A stretch of 28,497 nt of DNA. Source: a virus (taxonomy: Duplodnaviria; Caudoviricetes). The first letter of the stretch is position 1; each line of letters opens with the position of its first letter. The stretch is taken from positions 1 to 28,497 of IMG/VR virus record IMGVR_UViG_3300005805_000019; one strand, 5' to 3'. Shown here one piece after another: positions 1 to 28,497 of this stretch. The translations under genes were made by a program, and so were the position numbers. Below the pieces are notes generated by a model. That model saw nothing but the letters and a program-made list of their open reading frames with translations, did no database searches and had not been told where the DNA came from.

Positions 1-99
1 AGCAACCATTGCTCAAACAGCGGTAACTCAAGGGTTGACCGCAGCAACGAGATTGTTATTTGCAACCTTTGCGGCAAACCCATTCGGTGCTATTTTAGC
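1..99. repeat. 99-bp terminal direct repeat, left copy (assembly circularisation overlap)
   Basis: nt 1-99 are identical to nt 28399-28497 (agcaaccattgctcaaac...ggtgctattttagc). The repeat lies inside a reading frame that continues across the junction. Confidence 0.97.
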
Positions 100-2224
100 C
101 GTCATTGGATTAGTCATCGGTGCTATTGTTACTTTGACTGATGAAACAAATAATGCTGAAGCTGCAGAAAAGAAATATCAAGCAACTTTACAGAAAACAA
201 AATCAGAAAGAGAGTTTCAGATCTCCCTTATTCAAGCACAAGGGGCAACTGAACTTGAGGTCGCTCAAACCCGAAGAGCAAACGCTGAACGTGATTTAAG
301 AGACGCAAGAGCTCGTCTATTGGTTTATAAAGAAACAGGTGCTAGTGAAAAACAGATTAACCAAGAACTCACAGTTATTGCTGAAAGTAAAAGGATCATC
401 GCTTTAGAAAACGCTCGTATTGACCGAATGGCTACTGAAGAGCAAATAGAGAATGCTGAGAAGTTGACAGAAGCTCAAAAGAAAGCTGCTGAGGAACGTA
501 AGGCACAACTCCTTGATGAACTTAAACTATTGGGGGATATTAGACGAGAAGAACTCCAAAGAACAACCCGTGGTTTAGAGGTTAATCTACCTGAATACAA
601 CTCAGATCTTAAAGAACAGAATGACTTATTAAAGTCATTGGCAAAGTCACAAGGTGAATATAACGACGTATTTGATGAGTATGCAAAACTATTCAGAAAA
701 GGTGGAGAGGTTGCTGCTGCAATAGAAACTAATAAGATGATTTATGAACTTCCAAAAGAAGCACAAAATATTATTAAGATTAATACCGAATTAATTAAAT
801 CATCTTTAGAACTTGCGGGTTACAATGCATCAGATGTAGAAAGTAAAATTCTTCAGGCTTTATTATTTACCCAATCTCAGTTTTTAAAAGGTGTTTCTGA
901 CGACACTGAATTTTATATACAAAACCAAGAAAAACTTCTAACTTTTGAACGTTACTTCATTAGCTCATTTGTAAATACAAATATTAAAGGTTTCCAAGGT
1001 TCAACCGAAGCGATAGCGGAACAAAGAAAAATATTAACAGATCAAGCACAAGTGGTTTTTGCTAACCTCATTGCTAGTGGTAATGAATTGGTAAAGGTTA
1101 GAGAATATTACAAAGATGCCGCTGGAGCCATAAGAAACCTTAGTGATGAAAATCTAAAACTTTCTCAATCTACGGAAGTTTTAAACGGATTCCTGAGAAA
1201 TACTGGTGATTTAATCACAAGATCATTTGACCTACCAGTATCTTTTGGGAACTCTGCTAAAAACGCATTACAGAAAATAACAGATGAAATATCCAAGGGG
1301 ACATTTGATGCTGCTCGTGAGTTCGGATCAGATATTGAACAACTTGAATACACCTTACTTCAAAATGGTATAGACATTAGAAACGCTTCGTATGAAGAAA
1401 AACTAATGTTACTTAAAAAGTTCCTTGAGAAAGAGGTCAAGGAAACCGAAGATGCTGAGTCTAAGAAACAAGATGCTCAACAAAAAACCATTGAAAAGTT
1501 TCAACAAAATGTTCAATCATTTCAATCAGCTCTCAATGCATTTGCTCAGAGTTTAGGTGACTTCTACGAACTTCAGTTTGCAAAAATAGAAAATAATTAC
1601 TCTAAACTACAATCAGAGATCAATGACTCAACAGAAGAGGGACAACAGAAAAGATTAGAACTTGAAAAACAATACACTGGTGAGGTTGAGGCACTACAGA
1701 AGAAACAAGCAAAAGCACAACTAAGAATAAGTTTAGCACAGACCTTAGCAAACACAGCTGAAGCTGCATCGAAGATCAATGCTCAACTCGGTGCGTTTGG
1801 TATCATTGCTCAAGGTATTGTAGTTGCTGCGGGTATTGCTCAGGCAGCGATTATCACCGCTCAGTTAAATCAGATTGACTCTTTTGCAAGAGGTGGTAGA
1901 TTACCAAAGATGGCTGGTGGAGGATACCTACAAGGTCCTAGTCACAATAATGGAGGAATTAAATACCAAGGTGGGGGAGTAGAACTTGAAGGTCGTGAAT
2001 CAGTTATCAACAGAATATCAACTGTTCAATACGCAGATCTCCTATCGAGTATTAACATGGCTGGTGGTGGTAAACCTATTGTGATGAATAACTTTGATGA
2101 TTCAAGGATTGTGGAAGCAATAGCAAGACAGAGAAAAGAACCAATCAGAGCATACGTAGTTGAAAGTGATATTACACAAAAACAAACAGTGACTAAACGA
2201 CTTGAACAGCTCAGTCAAATTTAA
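2..2224 (+). CDS. Tail tape measure protein, 3' part (true start at 27977, about 881 aa in total)
   Basis: Long Ala/Gln/Glu/Lys-rich helical protein. It has an ANPFGAILAVIGLVIGAI hydrophobic segment and a C-terminal FARGG...GPSHNNGGI...ELEGRESVIN...IRAYVVESDI signature typical of TMPs. In frame with the ORF starting at 27977. Confidence 0.88.
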   Translation, partial: ATIAQTAVTQGLTAATRLLFATFAANPFGAILAVIGLVIGAIVTLTDETNNAEAAEKKYQATLQKTKSEREFQISLIQAQGATELEVAQTRRANAERDLRDARARLLVYKETGASEKQINQELTVIAESKRIIALENARIDRMATEEQIENAEKLTEAQKKAAEERKAQLLDELKLLGDIRREELQRTTRGLEVNLPEYNSDLKEQNDLLKSLAKSQGEYNDVFDEYAKLFRKGGEVAAAIETNKMIYELPKEAQNIIKINTELIKSSLELAGYNASDVESKILQALLFTQSQFLKGVSDDTEFYIQNQEKLLTFERYFISSFVNTNIKGFQGSTEAIAEQRKILTDQAQVVFANLIASGNELVKVREYYKDAAGAIRNLSDENLKLSQSTEVLNGFLRNTGDLITRSFDLPVSFGNSAKNALQKITDEISKGTFDAAREFGSDIEQLEYTLLQNGIDIRNASYEEKLMLLKKFLEKEVKETEDAESKKQDAQQKTIEKFQQNVQSFQSALNAFAQSLGDFYELQFAKIENNYSKLQSEINDSTEEGQQKRLELEKQYTGEVEALQKKQAKAQLRISLAQTLANTAEAASKINAQLGAFGIIAQGIVVAAGIAQAAIITAQLNQIDSFARGGRLPKMAGGGYLQGPSHNNGGIKYQGGGVELEGRESVINRISTVQYADLLSSINMAGGGKPIVMNNFDDSRIVEAIARQRKEPIRAYVVESDITQKQTVTKRLEQLSQI

Positions 2225-2230
2225 AAAAGA

Positions 2231-2238
2231 TATTTATA
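2231..2238 (+). promoter_or_regulatory. TATTTATA motif, candidate promoter of the head operon
   Basis: Lies in the 18-nt gap just before ATG 2243. The same motif recurs before several other genes. Confidence 0.45.
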
Positions 2239-2242
2239 TACA

Positions 2243-4789
2243 ATGTTAAAAATTATCGAGTTATTGATAGATCCCCTAAGTGGTGATACTGGTGTATTTG
2301 AAGTGGGTTGGGTCGCTCAGCCAGCTATTGAACAAGAGTTAATGTTCTTTGGTCGTCAGAAGTTTTACAAAGCACCTGAGGAGGTTGCTGCTAAAGCGTG
2401 TAGAGCAATAAAGGAAAACGAAGAAAGAGGTAATCCAGCATCCACTCAGGTGGGAAAAGTTCGTGGTCAGCAATTGTGTTCAAGATCTGAAATTTCCTTA
2501 GAAACAATCAAAAGAATGAAGTCATACCTCGAGAGAGCAGAGACTTACTACACCGGTGACTATGATGACAATGGTACTATTGCTTATGACCTTTGGGGTG
2601 GAAAACCAGCCAAGGATTGGACTACAAGAATTCTATCAAAAATAGAAGAGGAAAAAATGCAAGATGAAGGTCTTGAAGATGCTTGTTGGGAAGGTTATGT
2701 TGCCATTGGAATGAAACCAGCAAATGATGGTTCAGGTAGAATGGTTCCAAACTGTGTTCCAAAAGATTCAGTTCAAGAGTTTGTTTATCCTGAAGGTGGG
2801 GAAAATGAGAATGAGTTCATCTCACGTTGTATGGGTTCTGCACAAATGATTGGTGAATTCCCTGATCAATCTCAACGTGCTGCGGTGTGTTATTCTTATT
2901 GGAGAAATAACAAATTTTCCTCAAATAGAGTTGGATTTGATTGGGAAGTATTAAAAACTGATGAAGGTATTAATTTATTTGAAAGAGAGTTAGCAAGAGG
3001 TTCCTTACCAGTTTTATTTCATTTGGGATTAGTTAGTCCTGAACTTATTGATTTTACACGTCGTTATAGGATCCCTGTCAGTGCGATTAATATGTACTCC
3101 AACAGGGGCGAGAAAGTCCAACTGATAAAAGATATGGGACTTCCTCGTCATTATGATTTGGATCGTCAAGTTAGAAATGAACTTAGAAATGTTGCCATTG
3201 AGTTTGACTACGTTGTAACAGCATTACCATCATACGAGAATGTAACTGGTGATACTGACAATATGTTAATCAAACCATTCCTATCGGATTGTGGGTGTAT
3301 GAAAGAGGAGTTTGCTCCATATCCTTGGGATGAGTGTATTGCTGATCAGTTAGAAAAAGGATACTCTCAAGAGGTTGCTGAGAAAATCTGTGGGAAAATT
3401 AAAGCAATGAACAACTCACAACAAGAGTTTGAACTCCTTGGATATGTGGATGGTTTACCCGTATTCTCAACAAAAGAAGAAGCTGAGGAGTGGGGAAGAC
3501 AAATGGGTTGTCAAGGATCTCACAAGCACATCGATGAGAACGGTAATGTAACCTATATGGGTTGTGAAATTCACCCTGAAGAAGACGAGTTCGACTTTAG
3601 TGATTATACCAATGAAGAACTCGAAGCTGTTAAACTTATGGGTGAACTCGCAAAGGTCGCACCTGAAAAGTTTGAAGCTGTTGTCCCATCACTTGTTCAA
3701 GGTGTAACCTCAATGGAGATCGTAGGTACAAACTATCAAACACCAACTAAATTCTACAGATACGTAAGAAAGAAGTTTGATACTGTAACTAACGAGAACA
3801 GAGACTTCTGTATGAGTATAGAAGGTTATTTCTTCCGTAGGTTTGCTATTGATGCTATGAGAAACTACAATGTGGAGTTTGGTCATAATCGTCAACCTTA
3901 TAGCAAATGGCTATGGGCTGGGGGTCCCAATTGTGTCCACGCTTGGGAGGAGTGGGAAGCTAAGGGTAGAGACTTCCGTCCAACCGGTAGAGACTTAGGA
4001 CAAGCCGGTATCCCACCAGCAAACAAACCAAATAATGGTTACTATTCAGCTGAGACCAAAAGAAAATCTCAGAAAGCATATTGGGCTCAAAGGAACGAGC
4101 AGATGAGCAAACAGGACTTTGAACTCATTGGTGATTTGGAACCTATCGGATGGGATGATGAATACCCCATTTACGATGATATGGTGATGGCTCAAGACGC
4201 ATCTTACAAGATGGGATGTGGTGGTACATACGAGGAGATAATGTACAAGGAGAAGAGAAGTTTTAGAGCCTGTAATACCAAAGCAGTTAAAACAGAAATG
4301 AGGAAGCAGTTATTTGCTTCTGATGAAGAAAAACGAATGATCTACACTCCACTTATGATCCCTAATATTCTTATCCCAAGAATGTCTGAGGATGGGGAAA
4401 GATACTTCGTCAAATTCACACCAGATACAATCCGTCAAATCCAACAGAAGTTTATGATGGAACAAAGACTACGTGATAACAACTACGAACACTCCGATCA
4501 GAAGTGGAGAGACATTGTTATGGTTGAGTCTTGGATTGTAGATGGGGAAAGTGATAAAGCCTATTCCTTAGGTTTTAGTAAGGAAGACATCCCAACGGGT
4601 ACTTGGATGGGTGGATATAAAGTTCTCGACACCAAAGAAGGTGATATGATATGGAACAAATATATCAAACCAGGAGTAGTTCGTGGGGCAAGCGTCGAAG
4701 GGAATTTCATACTAAATTTTTCAGAGCAAACAAGCGATGACTATTTATTGAAAACCATAATAAATATTCTAAAAAGTATAACTAAATGA
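2243..4789 (+). CDS. Prohead protease (XkdF-like serine peptidase domain at the C-terminus) with a ~650-aa modular insertion
   Basis: C-terminal DEEKRMIYTPLMIP...NNYEHS...MVESWIV...GTWMGGYKV...GASVEGNF resembles XkdF/Peptidase_S78_2-type phage proteases. It sits immediately upstream of the scaffold and capsid genes. Confidence 0.75.
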   Translation: MLKIIELLIDPLSGDTGVFEVGWVAQPAIEQELMFFGRQKFYKAPEEVAAKACRAIKENEERGNPASTQVGKVRGQQLCSRSEISLETIKRMKSYLERAETYYTGDYDDNGTIAYDLWGGKPAKDWTTRILSKIEEEKMQDEGLEDACWEGYVAIGMKPANDGSGRMVPNCVPKDSVQEFVYPEGGENENEFISRCMGSAQMIGEFPDQSQRAAVCYSYWRNNKFSSNRVGFDWEVLKTDEGINLFERELARGSLPVLFHLGLVSPELIDFTRRYRIPVSAINMYSNRGEKVQLIKDMGLPRHYDLDRQVRNELRNVAIEFDYVVTALPSYENVTGDTDNMLIKPFLSDCGCMKEEFAPYPWDECIADQLEKGYSQEVAEKICGKIKAMNNSQQEFELLGYVDGLPVFSTKEEAEEWGRQMGCQGSHKHIDENGNVTYMGCEIHPEEDEFDFSDYTNEELEAVKLMGELAKVAPEKFEAVVPSLVQGVTSMEIVGTNYQTPTKFYRYVRKKFDTVTNENRDFCMSIEGYFFRRFAIDAMRNYNVEFGHNRQPYSKWLWAGGPNCVHAWEEWEAKGRDFRPTGRDLGQAGIPPANKPNNGYYSAETKRKSQKAYWAQRNEQMSKQDFELIGDLEPIGWDDEYPIYDDMVMAQDASYKMGCGGTYEEIMYKEKRSFRACNTKAVKTEMRKQLFASDEEKRMIYTPLMIPNILIPRMSEDGERYFVKFTPDTIRQIQQKFMMEQRLRDNNYEHSDQKWRDIVMVESWIVDGESDKAYSLGFSKEDIPTGTWMGGYKVLDTKEGDMIWNKYIKPGVVRGASVEGNFILNFSEQTSDDYLLKTIINILKSITK

Positions 4790-5553
4790 ATACCACAGAA
4801 GCGTTGAGTAAAATCGCTGAGTTGTTAGGAATGAAGTTCAAGTCAGAGAAGTTTTTTCAAACCAAACTTGTTGACGGGGAAACAGTTATCACAAATAATC
4901 ATGAAGGTCCTTTCACAGTTGGGGAACCTCTTTTTGTTGTTGGAGAAGGATCTATCCTTTTACCAGCACCAGCAGGAGAGCACACCACAAGAGAAGGTCT
5001 TGTATTGGAAGTTAGTGAGGACGGTGTAATCCGTGAGATAAGTGAGGCATCAAGAGAAGAAGAATCTCGTGTGGAGGAAGCAGAGACAGAAATTGAGGTT
5101 GACACCGAAGTTATGTCAAAAGCTAAACTCGCAGACGGAACTGAAATCGAAACAGATTCAGAAGGCGAATTTGCTGTTGGTCAGAAACTATTTGTTATTA
5201 CAGAAGCTGGAGAGAAAGTTGGAGCACCTGAGGGTATGCACACAACTGAATCTGGTATTGTTCTAACTGTAGATACTGAGTCAATGATCACAGGTGTAAA
5301 GTATCCCGATACAGAGGGAGAAGGATCACTGGGTGATTACAAAAAAAATATGGAGGACATGAAAAAGGCAATGACAGAAATGATGTCAGTAATGTCTACG
5401 TTCTCCAAGGACCTTGAGTCCTATAAAAAAGATTATGAGGAGTTCAAGAAGCAACCAAACTTCACTGAACCAGTCGTTAAAAAATCATTCGGTAAGGTAA
5501 ATCTTATCGATGCAAAATACGAGTTCCTCAAACAAAATTCATTAAATAAATAA
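4786..5553 (+). CDS. Capsid scaffolding-like protein with a two-copy internal repeat
   Basis: Very acidic, located between protease and capsid. Repeats KLVDGE...FTVGEPLFV...PAPAGEHTTREG and KLADGT...FAVGQKLFV...GAPEGMHTTESG, then a C-terminal coiled coil. Confidence 0.65.
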   Translation: MNTTEALSKIAELLGMKFKSEKFFQTKLVDGETVITNNHEGPFTVGEPLFVVGEGSILLPAPAGEHTTREGLVLEVSEDGVIREISEASREEESRVEEAETEIEVDTEVMSKAKLADGTEIETDSEGEFAVGQKLFVITEAGEKVGAPEGMHTTESGIVLTVDTESMITGVKYPDTEGEGSLGDYKKNMEDMKKAMTEMMSVMSTFSKDLESYKKDYEEFKKQPNFTEPVVKKSFGKVNLIDAKYEFLKQNSLNK

Positions 5554-5573: not shown

Positions 5574-6548
5574 ATGAGTAATAAACTAACAAAAATCGAA
5601 AAGGGTTCACCAAAGTCTTTCAAGTTCAACTATGACTTGTCTGCCCTTCCTGACTACGAGAACTACGGTTCAGAGATGTTAATTAAGGCATTCCTTGGAT
5701 TAACCTTGACTAAGTACTCTTCAATCAGACCAAATTTACGCGGAACTACTGAATTAGTAGGTTTCACCGAGACTGATGTCATCTTACAAGACCTTAGTTG
5801 CGGATTTGATCCGACAGGTTCAACTGTACAAAATGTAGTTGAAGTAAAACTATGTAATAAAAAAGCAAACGTTCAGTTCTGTCCTTATGACCTTTACAAC
5901 ACTTATTTGAGTGAGTACTTGTCTAATGGTAACTTCCAAGAGGAAATTCCTTTTGCTGAGGCTATCCTACAAGACGTTTCTAACAGAACGGCTAACCAAA
6001 TCGAGCTTCAACTTTGGAGAAACTCAACCGCAACTGGTGCTACTCAATACGATAATCAGTGTTTCAACGGTCTTATCAAGTTGATCACAACTGGTAATGG
6101 TGCAACTTCAGTTGCTTACACCGCGGCTACTGCTACTAACGGTCTTGATGTTTTCACATCTTACTACGAAGCGATCCCTGAGAACGTTCTTCACAGAGAC
6201 GACCTCGTTATCTACTGTGGTTACGCTGACTACCGTGCTCTTGTAAGCTCAATGAGAAACAACTCATTCATTAACTTGTTTGACTTCAACTCAGCTGACT
6301 CAGCTCAAGGTATGGATTGGGGAGTTATGCTACCCGCCACGAACGTGCGCGTAATTCCATCTCAAGGTCTAAGTGGCCAATCTAAAGTATACGCAGGTCC
6401 TGCTCAATACATCATGGTTGGTATGAACGACGAGATGATGACAACTAAATTGATGTACGATCCCTTCTCTGATATTGTGAAGCTGAATTTGCACTCGACG
6501 TACGGTTGCGGCGTGTTCGATCCATCAGCTTTCGTTGTAGCACAATAA
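5574..6548 (+). CDS. Major capsid protein
   Basis: 324 aa, directly after the scaffold, with codon usage suggestive of high expression (ttc/aac/tac/gct). Motifs FCPYDLYNTY, EIPFAEAIL...ANQIELQLW and FNGLIK resemble capsids of Bacteroidota siphophages. Confidence 0.8.
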   Translation: MSNKLTKIEKGSPKSFKFNYDLSALPDYENYGSEMLIKAFLGLTLTKYSSIRPNLRGTTELVGFTETDVILQDLSCGFDPTGSTVQNVVEVKLCNKKANVQFCPYDLYNTYLSEYLSNGNFQEEIPFAEAILQDVSNRTANQIELQLWRNSTATGATQYDNQCFNGLIKLITTGNGATSVAYTAATATNGLDVFTSYYEAIPENVLHRDDLVIYCGYADYRALVSSMRNNSFINLFDFNSADSAQGMDWGVMLPATNVRVIPSQGLSGQSKVYAGPAQYIMVGMNDEMMTTKLMYDPFSDIVKLNLHSTYGCGVFDPSAFVVAQ

Positions 6549-6580: not shown

Positions 6581-7123
6581 ATGTCATGTTATATTAGCAG
6601 CGGCTATACCTTAGATTGTAGAAATGCTTCTACGGGTGGAGTCAAAACTCTATGGCTATTGGGTGGTTCAGGTTCAGTTATTACTGGTTTTACTGAAGAC
6701 GTTCAAGAGCGTGTGGTTAGTGCAAGCGGAACAGGGACGATGTACAAGTTCGAGCTCACAAAGCAAGGAACAAGTCTAACCGAAAATATTGCGGTTAACA
6801 CTACTTCTCAGTCTATTGTATTCGAACCTACCCTTGTAGTAAACTTACCTAAACTCGATTGGGAGTTAAGAAAACTCTTCCAAGAACTTGTGTCACAGAA
6901 CTCAGTAGTGGGAATGGTGCAGGATAACAACGGACGTTACTTCACATTTGCGTGGAGAAACGGAGCGTTGGCTACCTCAGGTGGTATTCAAACTGGTCTT
7001 GCTTACGCTGACCTCAATGGTATGAATGCTCTAACATTCGTTGGAGGAGAACCAAACGCAACACAGGAAATACTTGTTACCACAACGCTTCAAGCAGTGT
7101 TCTCAGGTATTACTGTTCAATAA
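6581..7123 (+). CDS. Major tail tube protein (probable)
   Basis: 180 aa, Ser/Thr/Gly-rich. MSCYISSGYTLDCRNASTGGVK start, VQDNNGRYF and TGLAYADLNG...LTFVGGEP motifs. Follows the capsid gene and precedes a strong terminator. Confidence 0.68.
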   Translation: MSCYISSGYTLDCRNASTGGVKTLWLLGGSGSVITGFTEDVQERVVSASGTGTMYKFELTKQGTSLTENIAVNTTSQSIVFEPTLVVNLPKLDWELRKLFQELVSQNSVVGMVQDNNGRYFTFAWRNGALATSGGIQTGLAYADLNGMNALTFVGGEPNATQEILVTTTLQAVFSGITVQ

Positions 7124-7196: not shown

Positions 7197-8195
7197 ATGA
7201 GGTGGAACGGAAAGAATATTAGACCTATAGCACCGTCCTTTAGGGTTTACTTAAATAATGATAGACCAGCTGAGAATAGTTTCAAAAGGAGACCTATTCC
7301 TGTATGGCAAACTGTGATGAGTGTTCAACCACAAAGTTCTGCGGTTCCTTCGCCAAGTCCAACACCAACGCCAGCACCAGTCAACTGTGAATGGTCTGCA
7401 ATCACGGCTCAATGGAACTATAACACCAATGAATGGGATGAATGTTTACCTGTTCCACAAATCACTCCAACGCAGACCCCAACGATTAGTTTAACTCCAT
7501 CTATTTCATCAACACCACAGGTGACTCCAACAACAACAATAACTCCTAGTCCATCTCAACCTGGAACTGGTGGTTATATCGATTATTTTGATGCAGCATT
7601 TTATGATGGTGATGGTTATTGGGATTCATTGACAACAAATAAATCATTTAAGTTAATCAATTCACCTACTTATATCTCGGATTTCTCTGGTATGATTAGT
7701 TTTGATGGGGTTAATGATTATGCAGTTTCGGACGCTCAAATAATCCCTAATACTTCAGCCTGGTCAATCGAGTTTTGGTATAGATTCAATAGTGCCTCGT
7801 GTTCTTATTCACAAAATAGAATGTTTAATGATGGTAAACTTGGTTCATCAAATACCAATAATTTTACAGACGATAGAGACTGTTTTGGAAGTGCAAGGTG
7901 GCAATTTGATGGTATTGCAGATGCACCAGGCATTAACTATGGTGTTGCTGTTCCAGCTCAAGTTGTTTATACTTACTCTGGTGGAACGGTTGAGGTATTT
8001 TTAAATGGAGTTAATCAATATTCTAACACTGGATATGCTTATACTTGGAGTGCAAACAGGTTAAGTATGCTCACTACCAATGATGTAAATAAATCAGCAG
8101 TGGATTTTTCTATTATTAAAACTTATGGGTTTAAACTCACTTCAACTGAAGTTTTAAATAACTTCAATCAACTAAAAGCAAGATTTGGATTATGA
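7197..8195 (+). CDS. Virion adhesin with Pro/Thr linkers and a C-terminal LamG/concanavalin A-like lectin domain
   Basis: FDGVNDY...WSIEFWY...QVVYTYSGGTVEVFLNGV...LTSTEVLNNFNQLKARFGL is a typical phage LamG-like domain. PSPSPTPTP linkers precede it. Confidence 0.78.
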   Translation: MRWNGKNIRPIAPSFRVYLNNDRPAENSFKRRPIPVWQTVMSVQPQSSAVPSPSPTPTPAPVNCEWSAITAQWNYNTNEWDECLPVPQITPTQTPTISLTPSISSTPQVTPTTTITPSPSQPGTGGYIDYFDAAFYDGDGYWDSLTTNKSFKLINSPTYISDFSGMISFDGVNDYAVSDAQIIPNTSAWSIEFWYRFNSASCSYSQNRMFNDGKLGSSNTNNFTDDRDCFGSARWQFDGIADAPGINYGVAVPAQVVYTYSGGTVEVFLNGVNQYSNTGYAYTWSANRLSMLTTNDVNKSAVDFSIIKTYGFKLTSTEVLNNFNQLKARFGL

Positions 8196-8452
8196 AATAT
8201 GTAATATTTTTATACAATGAAGTTGGTAAAATAAACTTCAATGAAGTATTAGATGATGCTCCTGATACATTGAGAATAAGCCTAGAAGGTAAATCTATAA
8301 TCAAGTATACAGGAGAAATGCCAGAGAGTGTTAAATCTTTAAAATGGAAAAGTCTAGAATATTCCAAGCAAGAGATACTTAATATTATCTATACTGAATC
8401 CGAATGGATAGTTCCATTGGAAAACATAAACAAACAAACAACAACAAACTAA
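8192..8452 (+). CDS. Small conserved phage protein, possibly a fibre-associated chaperone
   Basis: ATGA overlap with the LamG gene. INFNEVL...TLRISLEG..IIKY.GEMP...EILNII...EW pattern recalled from small genes next to phage LamG genes. Confidence 0.55.
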   Translation: MKYVIFLYNEVGKINFNEVLDDAPDTLRISLEGKSIIKYTGEMPESVKSLKWKSLEYSKQEILNIIYTESEWIVPLENINKQTTTN

Positions 8453-8458
8453 GACAAT

Positions 8459-9259: not shown

Positions 9260-9269
9260 GTTTTAGGTG

Positions 9270-10970: not shown

Positions 10971-10982
10971 AAAAATGAAGAA

Positions 10983-19550: not shown

Positions 19551-19708
19551 ATACAGAAAATAATCAGTTAATAAGCATCTTCTCAAGGTTTGAGATTCAA
19601 AGACCAATAATGGGAAAACAGGAGGGGTATAATGTACCCACAACTTATTTTTACCAAGACAAGGTCATTAAAGAATACTATTACCGAGTTTTAAGATTGT
19701 TAAAATGA
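19547..19708 (+). CDS. Small hypothetical protein, 53 aa (not in the ORF track)
   Basis: Translated by hand as MNTENNQLISIFSRFEIQRP...YYRVLRLLK*. ATGA overlaps at both ends. Confidence 0.6.
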   Translation: MNTENNQLISIFSRFEIQRPIMGKQEGYNVPTTYFYQDKVIKEYYYRVLRLLK

Positions 19709-20847
19709 AGATTAAAACAACGGTCGTCTATGAACAATTAATATCCACTGATAAACGCATCTGTGTTTTTCAGGGTTCATCACGTGCATCCAAGACCTAC
19801 AACATTTTAATCTATTGGATCGTTAGACTACTTCAAGAGGATAACAAAACTCTCTCTATCGTCAGGAAAACCTTACCAGCACTTAAGGGATCTATACTTA
19901 GGGATTTGAAAGAAATACTCATTAACTTAGATCTATTCATTCCTGAAAACTTTCACTCAGTTGATGGTTACTACCAGTTGGGGACAAACACCATTGAATG
20001 GTTCTCTGTGGATGATGAGACAAAACTACGTGGTCGTAAAAGGGATTATCTGTTTATCAACGAAGCAACAGAAATATCTGAGGAGGAATACATCCAACTA
20101 GCACTTCGTACCTCAGACAGAATAACCATTGATCTTAACCCATCCCTATGGAAGTCGTGGATCTATGAACTCGAGGGTAAAGAAGATGTATTCTATACCA
20201 TTGTGACATATAAGGACAATCCATTTTTAAATAAAGTTCAAGTAAAAGAGATTGAAAAACTCAAAGACAAAGATGCGAATCTATATAGAGTTTTTGGTTT
20301 AGGTCAGAAAGGTATTCCAACAAGACTGGTCTTTAACCACCACAAACTATGTGATAGAGTTGCATCAGAGGCAAAACTACTGGCTTACGGAATAGACTTC
20401 GGATGGGAAGATCCAAATGTTTTAGTTGCTGTGTATCAACTCGGGGAAGACATTTATTGTGATGAGTTATTACATTTAACTCACACCACACTTCCTGACT
20501 TCATTTATAAAATAAAGGACTTAGGATTGAATCTAAGAGACGATTTTATCTGTGATAGTGCATCACCCCAATCCATTGAAGAACTCAAGAGAAATGGGAT
20601 AAATGCAAAGCCAGTAGTTAAGGGGTCTATCCTTCACGGAATAGATCTTATAAAAAGACACAACCTATACCTTACCCCAACCTCACTGAATCTCATCGAT
20701 GAGTTTAACTCCTATGTTTGGAAACAAGATAAGGATCTTAAAAACTTAGATGAACCAGTAGATAAAAATAACCACCTCATTGACTCAATCCGATATGTGA
20801 TGCAAATGAAAGTGGGACAAAAACAAAAGAAATTCGTAGTCGTATGA
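19705..20847 (+). CDS. terL: Terminase large subunit (PBSX/Terminase_3-like)
   Basis: Walker A-like QGSSRASKT, Walker B YLFINEATE, DLNP motif, TYKDNPFL, and nuclease motifs YGIDFG and NHLIDSIRY. Confidence 0.95.
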   Translation: MKIKTTVVYEQLISTDKRICVFQGSSRASKTYNILIYWIVRLLQEDNKTLSIVRKTLPALKGSILRDLKEILINLDLFIPENFHSVDGYYQLGTNTIEWFSVDDETKLRGRKRDYLFINEATEISEEEYIQLALRTSDRITIDLNPSLWKSWIYELEGKEDVFYTIVTYKDNPFLNKVQVKEIEKLKDKDANLYRVFGLGQKGIPTRLVFNHHKLCDRVASEAKLLAYGIDFGWEDPNVLVAVYQLGEDIYCDELLHLTHTTLPDFIYKIKDLGLNLRDDFICDSASPQSIEELKRNGINAKPVVKGSILHGIDLIKRHNLYLTPTSLNLIDEFNSYVWKQDKDLKNLDEPVDKNNHLIDSIRYVMQMKVGQKQKKFVVV

Positions 20848-21521
20848 TACAAGTAAAAATAGACAACCAAACCTATAAGATTAATCCTGAACTAACCGTT
20901 AGAAGGTATCAGAAGATTAAGAAAAACCCTGAGAAGTATGAGGACGTAGCAGAACTACTGGCTCTGTATATGGATTTAGATGCTGTTGATATTAAAAACC
21001 TACCAGCAGCTGAGATAAAATACATTGAAGATCTTTTAACCCTACATCAGTCTCAACCCACAAATGAGATAATCTTCACCTTTGAACACGATGGTGTTCT
21101 TTATGGTTTAGAAAATGATTGGGGAAATATGACTTGGGGACAGTTCACTGACTTGGAGGTATTCTCTCAACGAGATAAAATTGATGACAACATACACATC
21201 ATCTTAGCATTGTTATACAGACCCATTGAGATCAATAAGGACGGTACAAACTACAAACTTGCTAAGTATAACGACAAAACCGTTATGACACGTGCTGGTA
21301 TTATGTTGGATGTTCCCGTTCAGATATGGCTTGGTTGTGCGACTTTTTTTTTGCTAATCTCGCGAGAATACATCAACAATTCAAGAACCTCTTTGGAGCG
21401 GACGATGAGCAAACAGATACTCAAGAATCTGATGTGGATGATAGTCCCGAGATCTCTGCGTCCGAAGCAGCTGCGAGATACTACTTTCAGCTCACTTATG
21501 AGCTCGGTAAAAAAGATCTGA
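20844..21521 (+). CDS. Tail assembly chaperone-like protein (G form)
   Basis: MTWGQFTDLE...HIILALLYRP motif. Contains a T9 slippery run at 21344-21352. Confidence 0.62.
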   Translation: MIQVKIDNQTYKINPELTVRRYQKIKKNPEKYEDVAELLALYMDLDAVDIKNLPAAEIKYIEDLLTLHQSQPTNEIIFTFEHDGVLYGLENDWGNMTWGQFTDLEVFSQRDKIDDNIHIILALLYRPIEINKDGTNYKLAKYNDKTVMTRAGIMLDVPVQIWLGCATFFLLISREYINNSRTSLERTMSKQILKNLMWMIVPRSLRPKQLRDTTFSSLMSSVKKI

Positions 21522-21649
21522 CTAAAGTAAAAAAAATAAATAAACTCAATATGTACCTGTGTTTAAACGCAGCGTCACTAATAAAGGACAGAGCCATCGC
21601 AAGGGAAAACGAACTCAAAAAAATGAAACAGAATATCCGAAACACTTAA
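21350..21649 (+). CDS. -1 frameshift extension (GT form) of the tail chaperone
   Basis: Open -1 frame through the T9 run, giving ...CATFF-FANLARIHQQFKNLFG...; fusion of about 268 aa. Confidence 0.65.
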   Translation, partial: FANLARIHQQFKNLFGADDEQTDTQESDVDDSPEISASEAAARYYFQLTYELGKKDLTKVKKINKLNMYLCLNAASLIKDRAIARENELKKMKQNIRNT

Positions 21650-21698
21650 GTCTCGGCTTACAAGGTTAATAAACTATTTATCACTAAGAATAAAAATA

Positions 21699-22754
21699 AT
21701 GAATGAGTATATAACATTTCATAAAGTTCTTGATTTAATTCAACAATTTCAGGAACAATCCCCCATCTTGAACTCGTTCGGTTACGGTAACTTGGTAGAC
21801 TTCTCAAGAACGATATCAGGGAATACCGTGAACTACCCATATCTGTTTGCTGTACCTCAGAGTATGCAATACGATGAAAATACAACAACATACCAAATAT
21901 CATTGATATTTGCTGACATATTGAATTACGACTTAACAAACGAGAAGGATGCGGTAAGTGATATGAGTTTGGAGGCGAGACGTTTCTTGTCTTACATTAA
22001 AAGGGGGATGAGGACATTTCCTGAGTTATACAATAACTTGGATGTTCAGTTACCGGCAGCGGCAATACCCTATATGGAAAGAATGGGTGATCACGTAGCT
22101 GGTGTTGCTTTGGATTGTAATATACTGGTCTTTGAAGATATTAATGCTTGTGATTATTACCCAACTCCAACACCAACAATATCCTTAACCCCAACCAATA
22201 CACCTACTCCAACTCATACCCCTACAAATACTCCAACAAATACCCAAACACCAACATTAACACCATCATCAACTTGTCCACAAACAACGCAATATCTTGA
22301 AGTAGAACTTAGTGAAAATACAAAGTTTAAACTGATATTGTGGAATACAGCAAACTTTACTTCACCGGCAACTGCTAAATGTGATTATTCAGTTTCAGGA
22401 ACGGCATACGGAGATCTTGGAACCATTTACACAGGAACAGAAAGTATAAGTCAAACACAACATCAACATCAGTTTGATTTAGCACCAGTATTATTACCAG
22501 GAGAGACCGTATCAGGATTTACCGTTCATTCAGTATCAACGGTTGGTTGTCAATGTCCAGTTGAAGTTAAGTTTTGTAGAGAATACTATATTGATGGACC
22601 ATTTGCTCCTAGATTCGATTGGGTTGATTGCAATGGAATTAATCAGTTTTATGCAAGTGGTGGTGGTATTGCTATTTGTGCTTTAGAAGATACGGTAGTT
22701 TTAACCACTGGTTCAGGAACCATAACTGAACTTGGAGATTGCAAGCAAACATAA
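21699..22754 (+). CDS. Tail terminator-like protein with a PT linker and Cys-rich extension
   Basis: ~150-aa N-domain (NSFGYG...YPYLFAVP...D.VAGV) of tail completion type, then a PTPT tract and Cys modules. TATTTAT at 21675-21681. Confidence 0.55.
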   Translation: MNEYITFHKVLDLIQQFQEQSPILNSFGYGNLVDFSRTISGNTVNYPYLFAVPQSMQYDENTTTYQISLIFADILNYDLTNEKDAVSDMSLEARRFLSYIKRGMRTFPELYNNLDVQLPAAAIPYMERMGDHVAGVALDCNILVFEDINACDYYPTPTPTISLTPTNTPTPTHTPTNTPTNTQTPTLTPSSTCPQTTQYLEVELSENTKFKLILWNTANFTSPATAKCDYSVSGTAYGDLGTIYTGTESISQTQHQHQFDLAPVLLPGETVSGFTVHSVSTVGCQCPVEVKFCREYYIDGPFAPRFDWVDCNGINQFYASGGGIAICALEDTVVLTTGSGTITELGDCKQT

Positions 22755-22761
22755 ATAAAAG

Positions 22762-23325
22762 ATGTCACAAGAAGCACTCAATAAAGCAGCACTCATCCTT
22801 CAGAATACCCTTAAGGATTCACTTCTTCGTCAGAGGGAGTCAAGGGGGTTTTATGGTCAAACAAAACCAACATCAGGAAACTACCCAACACCTATCTCAA
22901 GTAAGATAGCATCGGGTAGTCTTTATGATTCGATCGAGGTATATCCTGAGTTTGACTATGAAAGAGGAAGACTTCGTATGGTTGTTGAGATGTTAGACTA
23001 TGGAAAGTATGTTAATAATGGACGTAGACCCAATGGAAAATATCCCCCATTAGCAGCAATTGACCGATGGGTACTTCAGAAACCAGGTTTTGGAAACTTG
23101 GTAAGAAATGCACAAGGTCAGTTCATTTCAAGAAAGTCTTTAGTATTCTTAATAAGACGTAGTATTGCTCGTGATGGTATATTCCCCACTAAGTTTATAG
23201 ATCGTTCAATAGAGGATACTTTGGATACTATTTACCAATCGTTTGAACAATCTAGTTATGAGTTAATAGAAGATCTTGTAAGACAAGCCAGAATTGAAAT
23301 AGAGTTTAAAAAGAAAACAAAATGA
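22762..23325 (+). CDS. Neck/tail completion protein (HK97 gp10-like)
   Basis: ASGSLYDSI...DYGKYVNNGRRP.GKYPP...IARDGI.PTKF motif; basic protein. Confidence 0.62.
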   Translation: MSQEALNKAALILQNTLKDSLLRQRESRGFYGQTKPTSGNYPTPISSKIASGSLYDSIEVYPEFDYERGRLRMVVEMLDYGKYVNNGRRPNGKYPPLAAIDRWVLQKPGFGNLVRNAQGQFISRKSLVFLIRRSIARDGIFPTKFIDRSIEDTLDTIYQSFEQSSYELIEDLVRQARIEIEFKKKTK

Positions 23326-24842
23326 GTGTAGCATTCACCAACATCCCAACAGAGTTCCAACCTGTATTATCAGATGGAATATTTTTTACTTTTACATCAG
23401 CAACCTATAACGTAGCAACGACTTTTAAGTTCCGTTACGTTTATGAGTTGTATGTAGAGGACGCATTAGTATTTGAGGGTAAATGTACCCCCAACCCATT
23501 TGGATATGGTATTGCTGATCTCCAACAGATCTTAGAAACCTATACCAACTCATTACCCATATCATATTGGGATACTACACCGATTTATACTCACCAAACA
23601 TTTCCATTCTCAAGACCAGCAAACGATGAGGTTATTAACTACTACGTCAAAGTAGGATACGAATATGCTGACAGTGAAATTTCCCCTCTAACGGGTTTTA
23701 CAGGTATTGGTAATAACGTTGGGACACCAGCGTTTCAAAGTGACGTATATAAGGTCTTTAGGTCTACTATGGGTACAAATGGTAGAGCAACCCAACAGAG
23801 CTTTAATATAGATCCATTTATTTTATCAGGAGCACCCCAAGGAATATATCCAACCACATCAGGATTGTTTTTAACCAATGCTCCAAGAATCCTTGATGTA
23901 AGTCCAACTGATTATTTTACCTTAGGTTTTACCAACTATTATCTTTGGAGTGGTGCAACCTCAGGATTGTCAGAGGGATACTACGTCAACTATAACTTTT
24001 ATGATGATCAAGGATCCCTTATTACCGGTGTGACCGTTGATAATATTGTGGCAAATGGGGGAGGTCCTAAATCAGGATGTACCCAAGTATATCAACAATA
24101 TTACTTGATTGATCCGGTATCAGCAACCACTGACTACAATACTTTGTATGTGGGTGCGGGTCCTGCTAACATACCATTCTTACCTGCAAACGCTGCACAA
24201 TACACGGTTCAGTTATTTGGTAAGTTCACGGGAACAACATCACCAATACAACCAACTCCAACACCGACTCCTACCCCTACTCAAGGAGCGGTCACAGCAA
24301 CTCCAACTCCTACTCCAAGTGCGACACCAGTATGTTCAGGTTGTACTGAATATAGTGTGGAATATACCGGTGAATCATCATCCACAGTGATCACGATCAA
24401 GAACTGTAATACAGGAGCATTCCAAAACTTAACAATCTTAAAAACTGCAATCTATGTTGTTTGTTCTTGTCAGGAACCATTCCACGCAGGAGAGGTTGAA
24501 GTTATAGCTCTTGGACCTTGTGGAGTAACGCCAACACCAACACCAACGAAAACACCGACAAGTACACCAACTCCTACCCCATCGGCTTGTTCATTCAAGT
24601 CATGGGTGATTAGTGAATGTTCGGATACTTGTCCAGGTGGTACTTGTTTCTGTGAAGGAGCAACAAGTATAACCGTATACACAGATTGTTCTGTAACAGA
24701 CATTACAGCTCTATCCACTCAACTATACGATACTTCATCACTGATTAGTCCTTGGACTGGTGACTTCCAAAGAAATGGTCGTATTTGGACCTCTTCAGGT
24801 GCTGACGTCACATTAGTTTGTGTGATCGGAGGACCTTGTTAA
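23322..24842 (+). CDS. Minor tail/distal tail protein, N-terminal part, with PT linkers and Cys modules
   Basis: FKFRYVYELYV...PNP.GYGIADLQ..L...FLTNAP motifs. Located upstream of the hub and TMP genes. Confidence 0.6.
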   Translation: MSVAFTNIPTEFQPVLSDGIFFTFTSATYNVATTFKFRYVYELYVEDALVFEGKCTPNPFGYGIADLQQILETYTNSLPISYWDTTPIYTHQTFPFSRPANDEVINYYVKVGYEYADSEISPLTGFTGIGNNVGTPAFQSDVYKVFRSTMGTNGRATQQSFNIDPFILSGAPQGIYPTTSGLFLTNAPRILDVSPTDYFTLGFTNYYLWSGATSGLSEGYYVNYNFYDDQGSLITGVTVDNIVANGGGPKSGCTQVYQQYYLIDPVSATTDYNTLYVGAGPANIPFLPANAAQYTVQLFGKFTGTTSPIQPTPTPTPTPTQGAVTATPTPTPSATPVCSGCTEYSVEYTGESSSTVITIKNCNTGAFQNLTILKTAIYVVCSCQEPFHAGEVEVIALGPCGVTPTPTPTKTPTSTPTPTPSACSFKSWVISECSDTCPGGTCFCEGATSITVYTDCSVTDITALSTQLYDTSSLISPWTGDFQRNGRIWTSSGADVTLVCVIGGPC

Positions 24843-24854
24843 AATATTATTGAT

Positions 24855-25388
24855 ATGACTTTAATCCCACAACCCGTCCCAACTTCATACATCTTAGGTA
24901 ACTGTGTGACCTACACTCCTGTGAGTGAGGTCTTCACCTTTAATGTAAATTGTCAACCAACTCGTTCTGAGAACCAACATCTTCAACTTATGTGGTTGAA
25001 TAGATATGGTCATTACGACTATTACACATTCTTGTTTAACCGCTATGAGGGTATGAGCATAGATCGTCAGACCTATAACTCAATGAATATTCAATGGGGT
25101 ACAACCGATTTTGTTAAGACACAATATTCAAGAGGATTAAACGATAGTGATATTGTTATGGTTCAGACAAATATTATTAACTCAGGATTTGTTAACCAAC
25201 CCACATTCGAATGGTTGGAAGAACTCTATACCTCAAACTTAGTTTATGAGATTCAACCTGATGGGGGAATATATCCTGTCAATATTTTGAACACAGAATT
25301 TGAGAGAAAGATCCAAGGGAATAGAACCATCTATAACTTGGAACTTCAGTATGTGAATAGCAATAATATCAAACTTCTTGGAATATAA
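24855..25388 (+). CDS. Minor tail/distal tail protein, C-terminal domain
   Basis: LMWLNRYGHYDYYTF...NSGFV...WLEELYTS..VY motif typical of pre-hub tail proteins of Bacteroidota siphophages. Confidence 0.6.
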   Translation: MTLIPQPVPTSYILGNCVTYTPVSEVFTFNVNCQPTRSENQHLQLMWLNRYGHYDYYTFLFNRYEGMSIDRQTYNSMNIQWGTTDFVKTQYSRGLNDSDIVMVQTNIINSGFVNQPTFEWLEELYTSNLVYEIQPDGGIYPVNILNTEFERKIQGNRTIYNLELQYVNSNNIKLLGI

Positions 25389-27973
25389 TGGATACAAGAC
25401 TACTTGTCAGTATAGTAGATAATACGTATGAATCAGTTGATCTTTTTGATGAAATTCCAATCACCCTGACGATTCAACAGAGTGACTTAACGAATTTAAC
25501 CGCAAGGAGAACTCCCTATTCTAAGACCATTCAGGTTCCTGATACTTCAAATAACGCTCTTGTATTTGAGCATTACTATGAGGTAAATGGTTTGGACTTT
25601 AATCCATTGAATAAACTCCCCTGTGTTGTTCAATATAGGGGTACTGATATTTTTACTGGTGTCCTTAGATTAAATGCGGTCATTGAGAAAAAAGGAATGA
25701 GGTATTATGAGATTTTTATCTTAGGTGAGGTCGCTGACTTTACAGCTCAGTTCAAAGATCTTGAACTCCAAGATTTAGATTATACAGATCTTAATCACAA
25801 TCTTCAGTACTCAGCCATCACTCAGTCGTGGGAAAATGTTAATGATGGTATGAGTGGTTTGTTCAATGGACAAATCCTTTACCCACTGATCAACTACGGA
25901 TTGGATTATCAAGGAACAGGAACTGGTGCTACCCCAACATTCACTTATACATTCGATGAGACACGTTCTTTTGATCAGAGTGGATTCTCTGTACCTCCGA
26001 GTATTTTTAAACCTTCTATTCAAATCAAAAGTGTATTAGATAGAATTTTTGCGAGAACCAACTATAACATCGTATCTGATTTTTTAGATTCTGATTATTT
26101 CAAATCCATTTATATGGATACATTTCAGAACGGTAAGTTGGGTATTATTAGTGGTACAGACATTCAAAACCAAAACATTTTTAGGGTTTACACCAACAAC
26201 CAAAACCAGCAAAGTCCTATCTTTCAACAGACTTCTTCAAGTTTAACTTTTGCTTTAAACTTTAGAGGGGAGTTCCCTGATGGATATGATCCGTTGAATA
26301 ACTTTGCTTTAGGAACCACCACACAAATCGCAGTTCCCAATGAAGGTTTCTTTCAAGTACCCTATGCTGGTGATTATTTCTTTAACTTTAGATGTAACTA
26401 TTCCAATCCAAATGCTGCGCTTGGAACGAGTATCTTTAGGATAGCCGCAGTTGCTCAATCCACAAATAACGTTAACTCGGTTGGTTCAACATTCTTTTTA
26501 ACACCACAACTTGTATGTGCAGGTGATGGTAGTGAACTCCCCTTGGATTTATATTTCTCAGGATCATTATTAACAGGTCAGTTCATAAGACTTTATGTTT
26601 TGTTGGATGGGGGTTCAAACTTTGGAACTCAAGTTAAGTTAAGTGGTTTTAATAACTTTGGTGTAACAACAGCCTTCCCTATGTGGGATCTCTACACATC
26701 CCCAATCATCCCTTCAGATCTTGTGGATATGAAAGTGGGGGTACCCAATATTAGGTGTATAGATTTTTTCAGGAGTTTAATCACCATGTTTAACCTTGTG
26801 GTTCAACAGGATGAGAGCAGTAAGGTTGTGCGTATTGAACCTTATAACTGGTATTATGATGATGTGGATAGACCAAGAAAGGATTGGACAAATATTCTTG
26901 ATTTGGATAATGAAAAGAAAATAGAACCATTATCATTTGATCTAAGTAAAGAACTTACTTGGACTTACCAAGAAACGGGTTTTGAGAATTTACCTTATGA
27001 GTTTTCTACACGTTTCGATTATGTCTTTGGTAGAAAGAGATATACCACGGGTAATGATATTTTCACAGACGAACAAGTCTATGAAGTTCCCTTTGGATCT
27101 TGTCCTACATCAGGAGTAACAAATGCTCCTAACTTTATCATACCTCAGTATTTTTACCTCAACAATGGACAACAAGCTCCATACGCCACAAAACCACACC
27201 TATTCTTTTGGGTGGGTAATAGATATTCCTACAAGGATATTTTTAAGTCTGTTCAAGGTCCTTGGTATTTGACTAGTGGTGCGACACCAGTGGAACAAAC
27301 CACTTATCCTTGTGTATCTCACTTATCAACATTGGAGAGTCAAATATCAGAGGTTATATCAGATTTGAACTTTGAGTCAACTTTTGACTTCTTTGCAAAC
27401 GATACAAACCTGATTCAACAGTTCACCCCATTTACCTTGTATAACACATTTTGGGCAACTTATGTGGATAATCTATATTCATACGAAAGTAGAAGATTGA
27501 CTGGTTATTTCTATTTTAGACCCATTGATGTTTACGAAACCTCACTCAAGGATAAAATATGGATAAAAGATGCTGCATACACGATTGAGAAATTAACCGA
27601 TGCTAATTTGGTGAATAAAGTCCTTACTCAAATTTCTTTGATTAAAGAGACTTATCCTTACTACAAGATAGAGCCACCAGCTCCGATCTATATCTTGTCT
27701 CCTAACGAACCTTATCCATCTCCTGAACCATTCTACAACACCGTATGCTTTGTATCAACTGACAAAGACTTAGTTTGTGCTGGTACAACCCCAACGTTGA
27801 CGGTTGTATATACATTCGGTTCAGGCACTATTGGGAACTTAGATAAAGTATATATTGATACTGGCACCTCATTCCAACTCTTACCACAAGGAACCTATGT
27901 TCGACAACAGAGTGAACCTACAACCTTTGTGGTGGTGAATAACTTGGGTCAAGTATTACAAACAACCTGTTAA
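25388..27973 (+). CDS. Tail tip/baseplate hub protein
   Basis: 861 aa. VDLFDE.PI.LT...YSKTI.VP...NN..F.HYY N-terminus, YPLINYG, DF..SLI.MFNL...IEP...DWT motifs. Directly precedes the TMP gene. Confidence 0.7.
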   Translation: MDTRLLVSIVDNTYESVDLFDEIPITLTIQQSDLTNLTARRTPYSKTIQVPDTSNNALVFEHYYEVNGLDFNPLNKLPCVVQYRGTDIFTGVLRLNAVIEKKGMRYYEIFILGEVADFTAQFKDLELQDLDYTDLNHNLQYSAITQSWENVNDGMSGLFNGQILYPLINYGLDYQGTGTGATPTFTYTFDETRSFDQSGFSVPPSIFKPSIQIKSVLDRIFARTNYNIVSDFLDSDYFKSIYMDTFQNGKLGIISGTDIQNQNIFRVYTNNQNQQSPIFQQTSSSLTFALNFRGEFPDGYDPLNNFALGTTTQIAVPNEGFFQVPYAGDYFFNFRCNYSNPNAALGTSIFRIAAVAQSTNNVNSVGSTFFLTPQLVCAGDGSELPLDLYFSGSLLTGQFIRLYVLLDGGSNFGTQVKLSGFNNFGVTTAFPMWDLYTSPIIPSDLVDMKVGVPNIRCIDFFRSLITMFNLVVQQDESSKVVRIEPYNWYYDDVDRPRKDWTNILDLDNEKKIEPLSFDLSKELTWTYQETGFENLPYEFSTRFDYVFGRKRYTTGNDIFTDEQVYEVPFGSCPTSGVTNAPNFIIPQYFYLNNGQQAPYATKPHLFFWVGNRYSYKDIFKSVQGPWYLTSGATPVEQTTYPCVSHLSTLESQISEVISDLNFESTFDFFANDTNLIQQFTPFTLYNTFWATYVDNLYSYESRRLTGYFYFRPIDVYETSLKDKIWIKDAAYTIEKLTDANLVNKVLTQISLIKETYPYYKIEPPAPIYILSPNEPYPSPEPFYNTVCFVSTDKDLVCAGTTPTLTVVYTFGSGTIGNLDKVYIDTGTSFQLLPQGTYVRQQSEPTTFVVVNNLGQVLQTTC

Positions 27974-27976
27974 TAA

Positions 27977-28497
27977 ATGGCAGATCCTATTCAAATTCCG
28001 TTAGAAGTAACCGGTATACCTAAATCCAAAAGGGAGGTAGAAGAGTTATTAGACAAAATTAAACTCTTATCCCTTGCTTTGGGGTCAATGGCAGATAAAG
28101 AAAGTGCTGCTTACAAAGAGACCGAAGCTGCTGTAAAACAACTTCAAGGAACCGTTGACTCATACAACAACTCAAAGGGTACTAAGAATGTTGAGAATAC
28201 CGCAAGGAGTTTTGTAAAAATCGGTAGTGCTATTACAAGTTCATTTGCTGCGGCTCAAGCGGCAATATCCCTATTTGGTAGTGAGAGTGAAGCGGTTGCT
28301 CAAGCTGCGGCAAAAGCACAAGGATTATTAACTTTAGCCCTTGCTTCAAGGGAAATAGCAGAAGCAGGTGCGGCTGTTAAAACGGTTGTTCTAACTACAG
28401 CAACCATTGCTCAAACAGCGGTAACTCAAGGGTTGACCGCAGCAACGAGATTGTTATTTGCAACCTTTGCGGCAAACCCATTCGGTGCTATTTTAGC
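27977..28497 (+). CDS. Tape measure protein, 5' part (continues at nt 100 through the circular junction)
   Basis: MADPIQIPLEVTG...FAAAQAAISLFGSESEAV...TAVTQGLTAATRLLF with no stop. Adds 152 codons upstream of the ORF-track start at nt 35. Confidence 0.88.
   Translation, partial: MADPIQIPLEVTGIPKSKREVEELLDKIKLLSLALGSMADKESAAYKETEAAVKQLQGTVDSYNNSKGTKNVENTARSFVKIGSAITSSFAAAQAAISLFGSESEAVAQAAAKAQGLLTLALASREIAEAGAAVKTVVLTTATIAQTAVTQGLTAATRLLFATFAANPFGAIL
28399..28497. repeat. 99-bp terminal direct repeat, right copy
   Basis: Identical to nt 1-99. Confidence 0.97.

Follow-up and report, generated by a model that had tools for sequence, protein, structure and literature searches.

Satellite phages that encode their own virion proteins have been described in Streptomyces. 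According to the available text of the original report, MiniFlayer and MulchRoom have their own capsid and lack replication genes (PMC10690885), and the satellite Ando is presented, in the accessible part of its description, as devoid of lysis and replication genes (PMC13587820). The available text of a 2026 review treats the relation between satellite frequency and growing helper genome size as unsettled and names few cases (PMC13359090). As regards RNA-primed replication, the T4 origins oriF and oriG are each described, in the text at hand, as a promoter with an AT-rich DNA unwinding element, at which an R-loop made by the transcript serves as primer; these origins can support plasmid replication once T4 has infected the cell (PMC3016281). 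Here, we report the analysis of IMG/VR record IMGVR_UViG_3300005805_000019, the whole 28,497-nt stretch of which is hereafter called the window. It holds the complete genome of a siphovirus-like phage with head, tail and terminase genes of its own. In our judgement, this phage is rather probably a virion-complete satellite of T4-like jumbo myoviruses infecting freshwater Bacteroidota, which would borrow late transcription and lysis from its helper and would start replication at an RNA-primed origin.

The ends of the window are identical over exactly 99 bases, which gives a complete circle of 28,398 bp. This overlap falls within a single tape-measure open reading frame (ORF), of which 881 aa are read through the junction, and IMG/VR classes the record as carrying direct terminal repeats and as 100% complete. 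The junction was bridged by the assembled contigs X1 (11,493 nt; window 21707-28497 joined to 100-4801) and X2 (7,588 nt), both possibly from the source study itself, and it was also spanned by X5 (4,095 nt; a ~96% strain) from another study. The four best sequencing-run matches were lake water from one study, and no RNA run was present among the sequencing runs listed as containing the window sequence. It could be argued that the window is an assembly artefact, namely a larger phage assembled only in part or in collapsed form, as read depth in X1 and X2 dropped to 5-8x at 14.0-16.7 kb versus 13-14x. However, depth in X7 was flat (18x) across this region, and the dip coincides with the lowest G+C. 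Furthermore, when the 120 best of 571 capsid relatives were considered, the longest contig measured 31,681 nt. Since the junction is bridged in two studies, the relatives' contigs and genomes are similarly small (28-36 kb for the family) and 5 of 21 relatives have terminal repeats, the circle does not represent a larger genome that collapsed in assembly. The artefact was thus already largely refuted and we regard it as extremely improbable; the original prediction that the circle is complete was borne out.

The window belongs to a large freshwater family. The 22 genomes compared were the window and 21 near-complete relatives (20 of the 23 searched, plus G001; G002 was excluded as partial). They measure 27.8-36.2 kb and have the same virion genes, so that the comparison with capsid relatives called for by the original prediction also spoke against a collapsed larger genome. 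None of 50,697 GenBank phage records had a capsid match, and a search of 185,579 prokaryote genomes likewise gave no relative of the capsid. In a literature search that covered few subscription papers and no supplements, no published description of the family, of its TATTTAT motif or of its structured RNA was found. The closest cultured relative found was the Bacteroidota siphovirus Nonlabens phage P12024S (Inhavirus). Its capsid-position, tail tube, portal, large terminase (TerL) and hub proteins match 21-22 of the 22 family genomes; these proteins and the adaptor are homologous to those of the window at 22-33% identity, and in both cases the tail genes come after TerL. In contrast, P12024S has its own endolysin, holin, Erf, exonuclease, SSB, primase, helicase and sigma-70 region-2 gene. 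These eight genes match none of the 22 genomes, and the replication and lysis modules of Inhavirus are therefore not common to the family. TATTTAT was found upstream of none of the 49 P12024S genes. A Bacteroidota host is probable for the family because of the cultured relatives and of sites of the TAnnTTTG type, which we take to be the host consensus.

In order to establish which functions are encoded, profile scans (Pfam, PHROGs) were run on the 38 window proteins and, for the relatives, on 140 accessory and 64 larger proteins (one to three representatives per shared cluster, and singletons of at least 85 aa). As originally predicted, no recognisable polymerase, primase, helicase, recombinase, integrase, CI repressor or endolysin was found among the 38 window proteins. 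Across all 38+140+64 proteins scanned from the 22 genomes, there was no polymerase, primase, replicative helicase, integrase or peptidoglycan hydrolase, and the lysin scan detected 2 of 2 control lysins. The sole contrary row was a match of the phrog_971 'endolysin' profile (positions 390-524 of 1338, E 2.6e-5) to the tape-measure N-terminus, which we read as tape-measure similarity, as Pfam gives no hydrolase there. No tRNA or tmRNA was found in the window. The Zn-finger protein 14731 was also examined by fold search (model pLDDT 82, pTM 0.42) and was not retained: nothing was obtained at E<=0.001, and the weak rows were nuclease-associated Zn fingers.

In the window, the heptamer TATTTAT is found ahead of the protease gene, the portal gene, ORF 15842, the 16523-terminase operon and ORF 21699 on the + strand, and ahead of the Zn-finger gene on the - strand; throughout the family, it precedes these genes as well. 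Counted over the 40 nt ahead of each ORF start, it was present at 5 of 35 ORFs in the window and 99 of 755 in the other 21 family genomes, versus less than 1% in coding windows. In three jumbo contigs the counts were 46/166, 31/113 and 36/136, and TATTTAT was the top upstream heptamer. In the Flavobacterium phage immuto (100 of its 160 kb), it precedes 19 of 125 ORFs, is again the leading upstream motif and is found ahead of TerL, portal, sheath, tail completion and hub genes, the small early-type ORFs mostly having TAnnTTTAG instead. Because the jumbo contigs had been retrieved by a pattern scan that included TATTTAT, immuto, which was found via a sigma homolog, is the cleaner test. Among controls, the motif was upstream of 3/263 ORFs in five small cultured Bacteroidota phages and of 15/825 in 58 Bacteroidota chromosome loci, and it ranked 13th-18th among 21 permutations.

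T4-type Gp23 was present in 3 of the 5 large contigs tested, and these three are an estimated 34-52% complete at 106-156 kb. One jumbo contig encodes a polymerase, a DnaB-like helicase, an exonuclease, UvsX, SSB and T4-like portal, protease and capsid proteins. All three jumbo contigs encode a sigma-like protein, which Atlas groups with phage sigma factors (0.99) and which has no PHROG or PDB match; a homolog is present in immuto (E 6e-7). As a separate observation, the jumbo contigs L269 and L338 contain long runs of short paralogous genes starting MKKIV(R/K)LTESDL, many of them with their own TATTTAT.

These data could also be explained if the family consisted of independent minimal lytic or plasmid-like phages. 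The host sigma would then read TATTTAT, perhaps with a Zn-finger activator, replication would rely on a local cassette and the host replisome, lysis would be due to an unrecognised small protein or to a holin-like protein alone, and the motif and ORF 17179 would reflect shared hosts and gene flow with jumbo phages. TATTTAT is indeed one base from the host -7 element, initiator-like genes occur in 13 of 22 genomes (one with an adjacent AAA ATPase), 7 of 22 have a sigma-like gene, and membrane-protein candidates exist, such as 15842, which could be holin- or spanin-like. Nevertheless, TATTTAT is not enriched in host loci or in the five small cultured phages, most late sites lack both the -33 box and the first T, and no lysin was seen among the scanned proteins, whereas a lysin is evident in three of the small cultured control phages or in their annotation. 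We therefore hold this explanation to be unlikely, though it is a serious competitor.

A second connection with jumbo phages is ORF 17179, which lies between the small and large terminase genes and whose family is present in 8 of 22 genomes. It matches over its full length a gene of three large contigs (E 6.5e-20 to 4.6e-13), and this jumbo counterpart sits between the portal and head protease genes. The predicted model is ferredoxin-like (pLDDT 85) with no specific match, and Foldseek gave no match at E<=0.001. An HUH Rep was considered and rejected, as relaxases appeared at Z 5.4-5.5 among many ties and no HxH motif was seen in the alignment. Our guess, from gene position, is that ORF 17179 interferes with helper head assembly. 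One jumbo contig also contains homologs of the tail genes 7197 and 8192. The borrowing of late transcription and lysis put forward in the original prediction thus gains circumstantial support from a motif that the controls do not share, from the lack of a lysin among the scanned proteins and from a common head-operon gene.

The region to the right of the divergent Zn-finger promoter, hereafter the slot, contains an initiator-like gene in 13 of 22 genomes: a DUF6291 protein in 7, a winged-helix-like protein in 4 and an HTH_36 protein in 2. The DUF6291 match exceeded the Pfam threshold in 2 of the 3 proteins tested, and no paper naming this domain was found in the literature searched; one HTH_36 protein has a weak DnaD_N match and one is encoded beside an AAA ATPase. 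There is no initiator-like gene in the window slot. Its element is non-coding, 79% like a stretch of the relative G014 over 90 nt, and was extended by iterative search to a family of ~250 nt (type I). The structure was obtained from 10 sequences with RNAalifold, minus one long-range helix and plus one helix added by eye, which forms a pseudoknot. Among its 31 pairs, 26 changed on both sides, and 92.5% of cells were paired; 0 of 500 shuffles reached that score and slid controls paired at most 50.5%. In one helix, G-U pairs favour the + strand in 10/10 sequences, which points to an RNA. Rfam gave 0 matches at E<=1 for window 13000-22000 and for 5 loci at which elements of types I, II and III are found. 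A pattern search for the RNA yielded mostly chance matches, being true in 2/6 viral and 2/24 metagenome cases.

Among 129 records that contain the Zn-finger gene and are partly redundant, the slot held an initiator-like gene only in 58, an element only in 42, neither in 29 and both in 0. The association holds in 70 dereplicated groups (p 6e-4), and five groups of near-identical strains hold members of either slot state. Upstream of the window RNA there is only what looks like an imperfect host-type promoter and downstream an 87% A+T tract; no tandem iterons were found at 14.6-16.6 kb. Because the RNA is interchangeable with initiator-like genes and the layout resembles that of an R-loop origin, we propose that it acts as an origin primer. 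Two other candidates were rejected. The 14.8-15.1 kb element is not a decayed ORF, its indels being out of frame with stops in all frames. ORF 15111 was the best non-member of the DUF6291 model (E 0.076), but its hhalign probability as a hidden initiator was 3.7% and Atlas gives GIY-YIG.

The RNA of a helper-dependent satellite might alternatively have a regulatory, decoy or anti-helper role or be a ribozyme. Initiator-less members would then be copied by the recombination-dependent replication of the helper, possibly started by the GIY-YIG nuclease. A pseudoknotted RNA of 250 nt does exceed the structure needed by T4 R-loop origins, T4 copies origin-less plasmids via recombination according to the available text of PMC3016281, the GIY-YIG ORF adjoins the RNA in the window, and jumbo phages encode UvsX. 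However, both the exclusion between RNA and initiator-like gene (0/129 with both) and their swapping among near-identical strains would be left unexplained, and none of the other 21 genomes has the GIY-YIG ORF. A helper-dependent satellite whose RNA acts in this other way appears improbable.

Other non-coding elements were noted at the slot. Type II elements (L117, L145, L147, L149, L168) measure ~170 nt, as do type III elements (G001, L098, L158, L513, L527, L549), in which GGGACTTA is repeated twice; neither type has an Rfam match, and most of these elements contain a GGGGGG-A-GGGGG tract. The initiator-less G009 (27105-27610, - strand) and G007 (21912-22436) have non-coding stretches, of which that of G009 resembles by eye a diverged type I RNA but failed the model. 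The jumbo contigs L338 (13082), L343 (14558) and L281 (16724) share a G-rich non-coding tract (GGGGGGATACGGG...) near the early-gene region, a possible jumbo origin or genome end.

If the window phage is a satellite with an RNA-primed origin, its cycle could proceed as follows. After infection, a host-type promoter would produce the RNA, an R-loop would form at the downstream AT-rich tract, and this would prime the replisome of the host or of the helper, in the manner of T4 oriF/oriG or ColE1. The virion genes would stay silent until a jumbo phage provides a sigma factor acting on the TATTTAT late promoters. ORF 17179 would modulate helper head assembly or expression, and the lysins of the helper would supply lysis. 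Since the sequence ahead of the window RNA resembles an imperfect host-type promoter, replication may not need the helper, and a plasmid-like persistence between helper infections would be possible. The borrowed replication of the original prediction was only half right, initiator-like genes being present in 13 of 22 genomes and a structured RNA in the window slot; this RNA fits its alternative, an unrecognised initiation mode.

Several points weigh against this scheme. Helper dependence and origin function were deduced from sequence, and no helper, host, transcript or co-abundance was observed. A sigma-like gene (labelled by eye) is present in 7 of 22 family genomes, where the same motif is in use (39/250); this gene is missing from the window, and its product has no Pfam, PHROG or convincing PDB match and no profile similarity to the jumbo sigma. 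In addition, TATATTTAT differs by one base from TAnnTTTG, presumably the -7 element of Bacteroidota housekeeping promoters, the early promoters of immuto show that TAnnTTTA is usable, and a TTG -33 box is seen at several slot promoters, with TTG ~20 nt upstream at some sites. From these features, the host sigma may read some TATTTAT sites. The Zn-finger protein, present in 22/22 genomes, could be a late activator. For the RNA, the type I folding z-scores are modest (-0.7 to -2.9), the 10 sequences that yielded the structure are related and also served to score it, and the RNA models match nothing in jumbo loci. The slot holds neither an initiator-like gene nor an element in 29/129 records and 3/22 genomes, and the initiator role of the DUF6291, HTH_36 and winged-helix clusters is one that we assume.

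Table 1. Features of the window, with functions as assigned or proposed in this analysis.
Feature	Position	Strand	Basis or remark
Tape-measure protein, N-terminal part	27977..28497	+	Continues over circular junction, 881 aa total
Tape-measure protein, C-terminal part	1..2224	+	phrog_9959 E 8e-8
TATTTAT late-promoter-like motif ahead of head operon	2231..2237	+	
Prohead protease, XkdF-type domain at C-terminus	2243..4789	+	PF14550 E 1e-11
Probable scaffold protein	4786..5553	+	Position; 22/22 genomes
Probable major capsid protein	5574..6548	+	Position, size; homolog of P12024S gp02
Probable tail tube protein	6581..7123	+	Homolog of P12024S gp03
Variable tail-fibre/receptor-binding block	7197..11429	+	LamG-like, DUF5122 propeller, PT repeats
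Portal protein	11422..12495	+	PF04860; TATTTAT at 11398
DUF6712 protein, probable head-tail adaptor	12492..13115	+	
Leftward operon, six small ORFs	13116..14731	-	Two Zn-finger paralogs (family in 22/22 genomes), helix-turn-helix protein
TATTTAT of leftward operon	14736-14742	-	4 nt ahead of ATG at 14731
Type I structured non-coding RNA, ~250 nt	14805..15057	+	Covarying helices, probable pseudoknot; putative origin role
AT-rich tract, candidate unwinding element	15058..15110	+	87% A+T
GIY-YIG nuclease-like protein	15111..15734	+	N-terminal 80 aa left without assignment; weak DUF6291-like match only
Hydrophobic N-terminus + coiled coil protein, holin/spanin-like candidate	15842..16117	+	TATTTAT at 15815
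TATTTAT, conserved Cys-rich ORF 16523, probable small terminase 16773	16497..17192	+	16773: phrog_309 E 0.006
Ferredoxin-like protein (ORF 17179)	17179..17613	+	Jumbo-phage homolog flanked by portal and head protease genes
RHH-like ORF (label by eye), DNA methyltransferase 17984-18811, tandem paralogs 18808 and 19182	17555..19708	+	
Terminase large subunit (Terminase_3)	19705..20847	+	
Probable neck, tail and hub genes	20844..27973	+	Conserved family-wide; TATTTAT at 21675

The start of ORF 14399 is most likely at 14731. The region 13.1-19.7 kb had been called non-structural, a label that does not fit all of it, since 16773 probably encodes the small terminase. The 275-aa ORF encodes a DNA methyltransferase, and 15111 is of the GIY-YIG type. 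At 16123-16200, TATTTAT precedes no ORF but a stretch of ~75 nt and then a terminator-like hairpin, possibly a small RNA, and the hairpin resembles one in the jumbo contig G031. After the methyltransferase, the tandem paralogs at 18808-19550 have identical ends, with many assembly joints and raised depth; from these joints and depth, lake phages share this block, which varies among them. Eight genomes (G007, G009, G012, G014, G018, G019, G023, G001) carry, in the interval from the small to the large terminase gene, a swappable DNA-modification cassette with methyltransferases, Dam, Mom, Tet/JBP oxygenase, TET-associated glycosyltransferases and thymidylate-synthase-like, MazG and ParB-like proteins. 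G010 and G011 (L179:4096-5214, - strand) encode a Druantia DruA-like protein (PF14236 E 5e-12), possibly with an anti-helper function. G017, G018 and G021-G025 form a sub-lineage with a divergent capsid and a pair of winged-helix and sigma-like genes just ahead of the terminase operon.

A broader and more tentative proposal is that such phages are widespread freshwater, fully tailed hyperparasites, activated by the late sigma of T4-like Bacteroidota jumbo phages, with an interfering head-gene copy and a swappable replication cassette in which at least three unrelated structured RNAs take the place of a protein initiator. If true, some 'normal' metagenomic phages would be hyperparasites, discoverable by promoter motif, and this family of hundreds of capsid variants, outwardly ordinary small siphoviruses, would be awaiting jumbo phages. 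The initiator-or-RNA cassette yields new structured RNA classes whose function is directly and cheaply testable. Likewise, immuto on Flavobacterium LMO8 provides a cultured candidate helper type, which makes the promoter claim testable now.

Among known satellites, P4 depends on its helper for late expression, as is proposed for the window phage, and a possible interference with helper head assembly is a further likeness to P4, phage-inducible chromosomal islands (PICIs) and cf-PICIs. These elements integrate into the chromosome, retain a replication gene of their own and rely on the helper for capsid or tail (see also PMC13587820). None of this holds for the window: no integrase or primase was found in it, the 185,579 prokaryote genomes gave no capsid relative, and a full tail module is present.

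The window phage would work rather like MiniFlayer, MulchRoom and Ando. As in the accounts available for these phages, it has a small genome with terminase, portal, scaffold and capsid genes, no primase, and a proposed large virulent helper; MiniFlayer itself is described there as lacking a lysogeny module and MulchRoom as having a GIY-YIG gene. In the window, portal, TerL, protease and tape measure were recognised by profile, capsid and tail tube by position and P12024S homology, and no primase, helicase or polymerase was found. The inverse arrangement of the original prediction, an own virion with borrowed replication, is partly supported and was already known from the Streptomyces satellites (PMC10690885, as far as its available text goes). 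In the same sources, these satellites measure 13-17 kb and have no full tail, MulchRoom and Ando taking helper tails, and their dependence was shown by failed plaque purification. In contrast, the family measures 28-36 kb, has tape-measure and tail modules, a probable Bacteroidota host, a promoter motif shared with T4-like phages and an initiator/RNA cassette, and its dependence is suggested by genes and motif. Finally, the window element would resemble T4 oriF/oriG and the ColE1 RNA primer, in the accounts available, in having a putative promoter, a predicted transcript, a downstream AT-rich tract and no initiator gene; it differs from them in being highly structured, without an Rfam match, and interchangeable with initiator-like genes.

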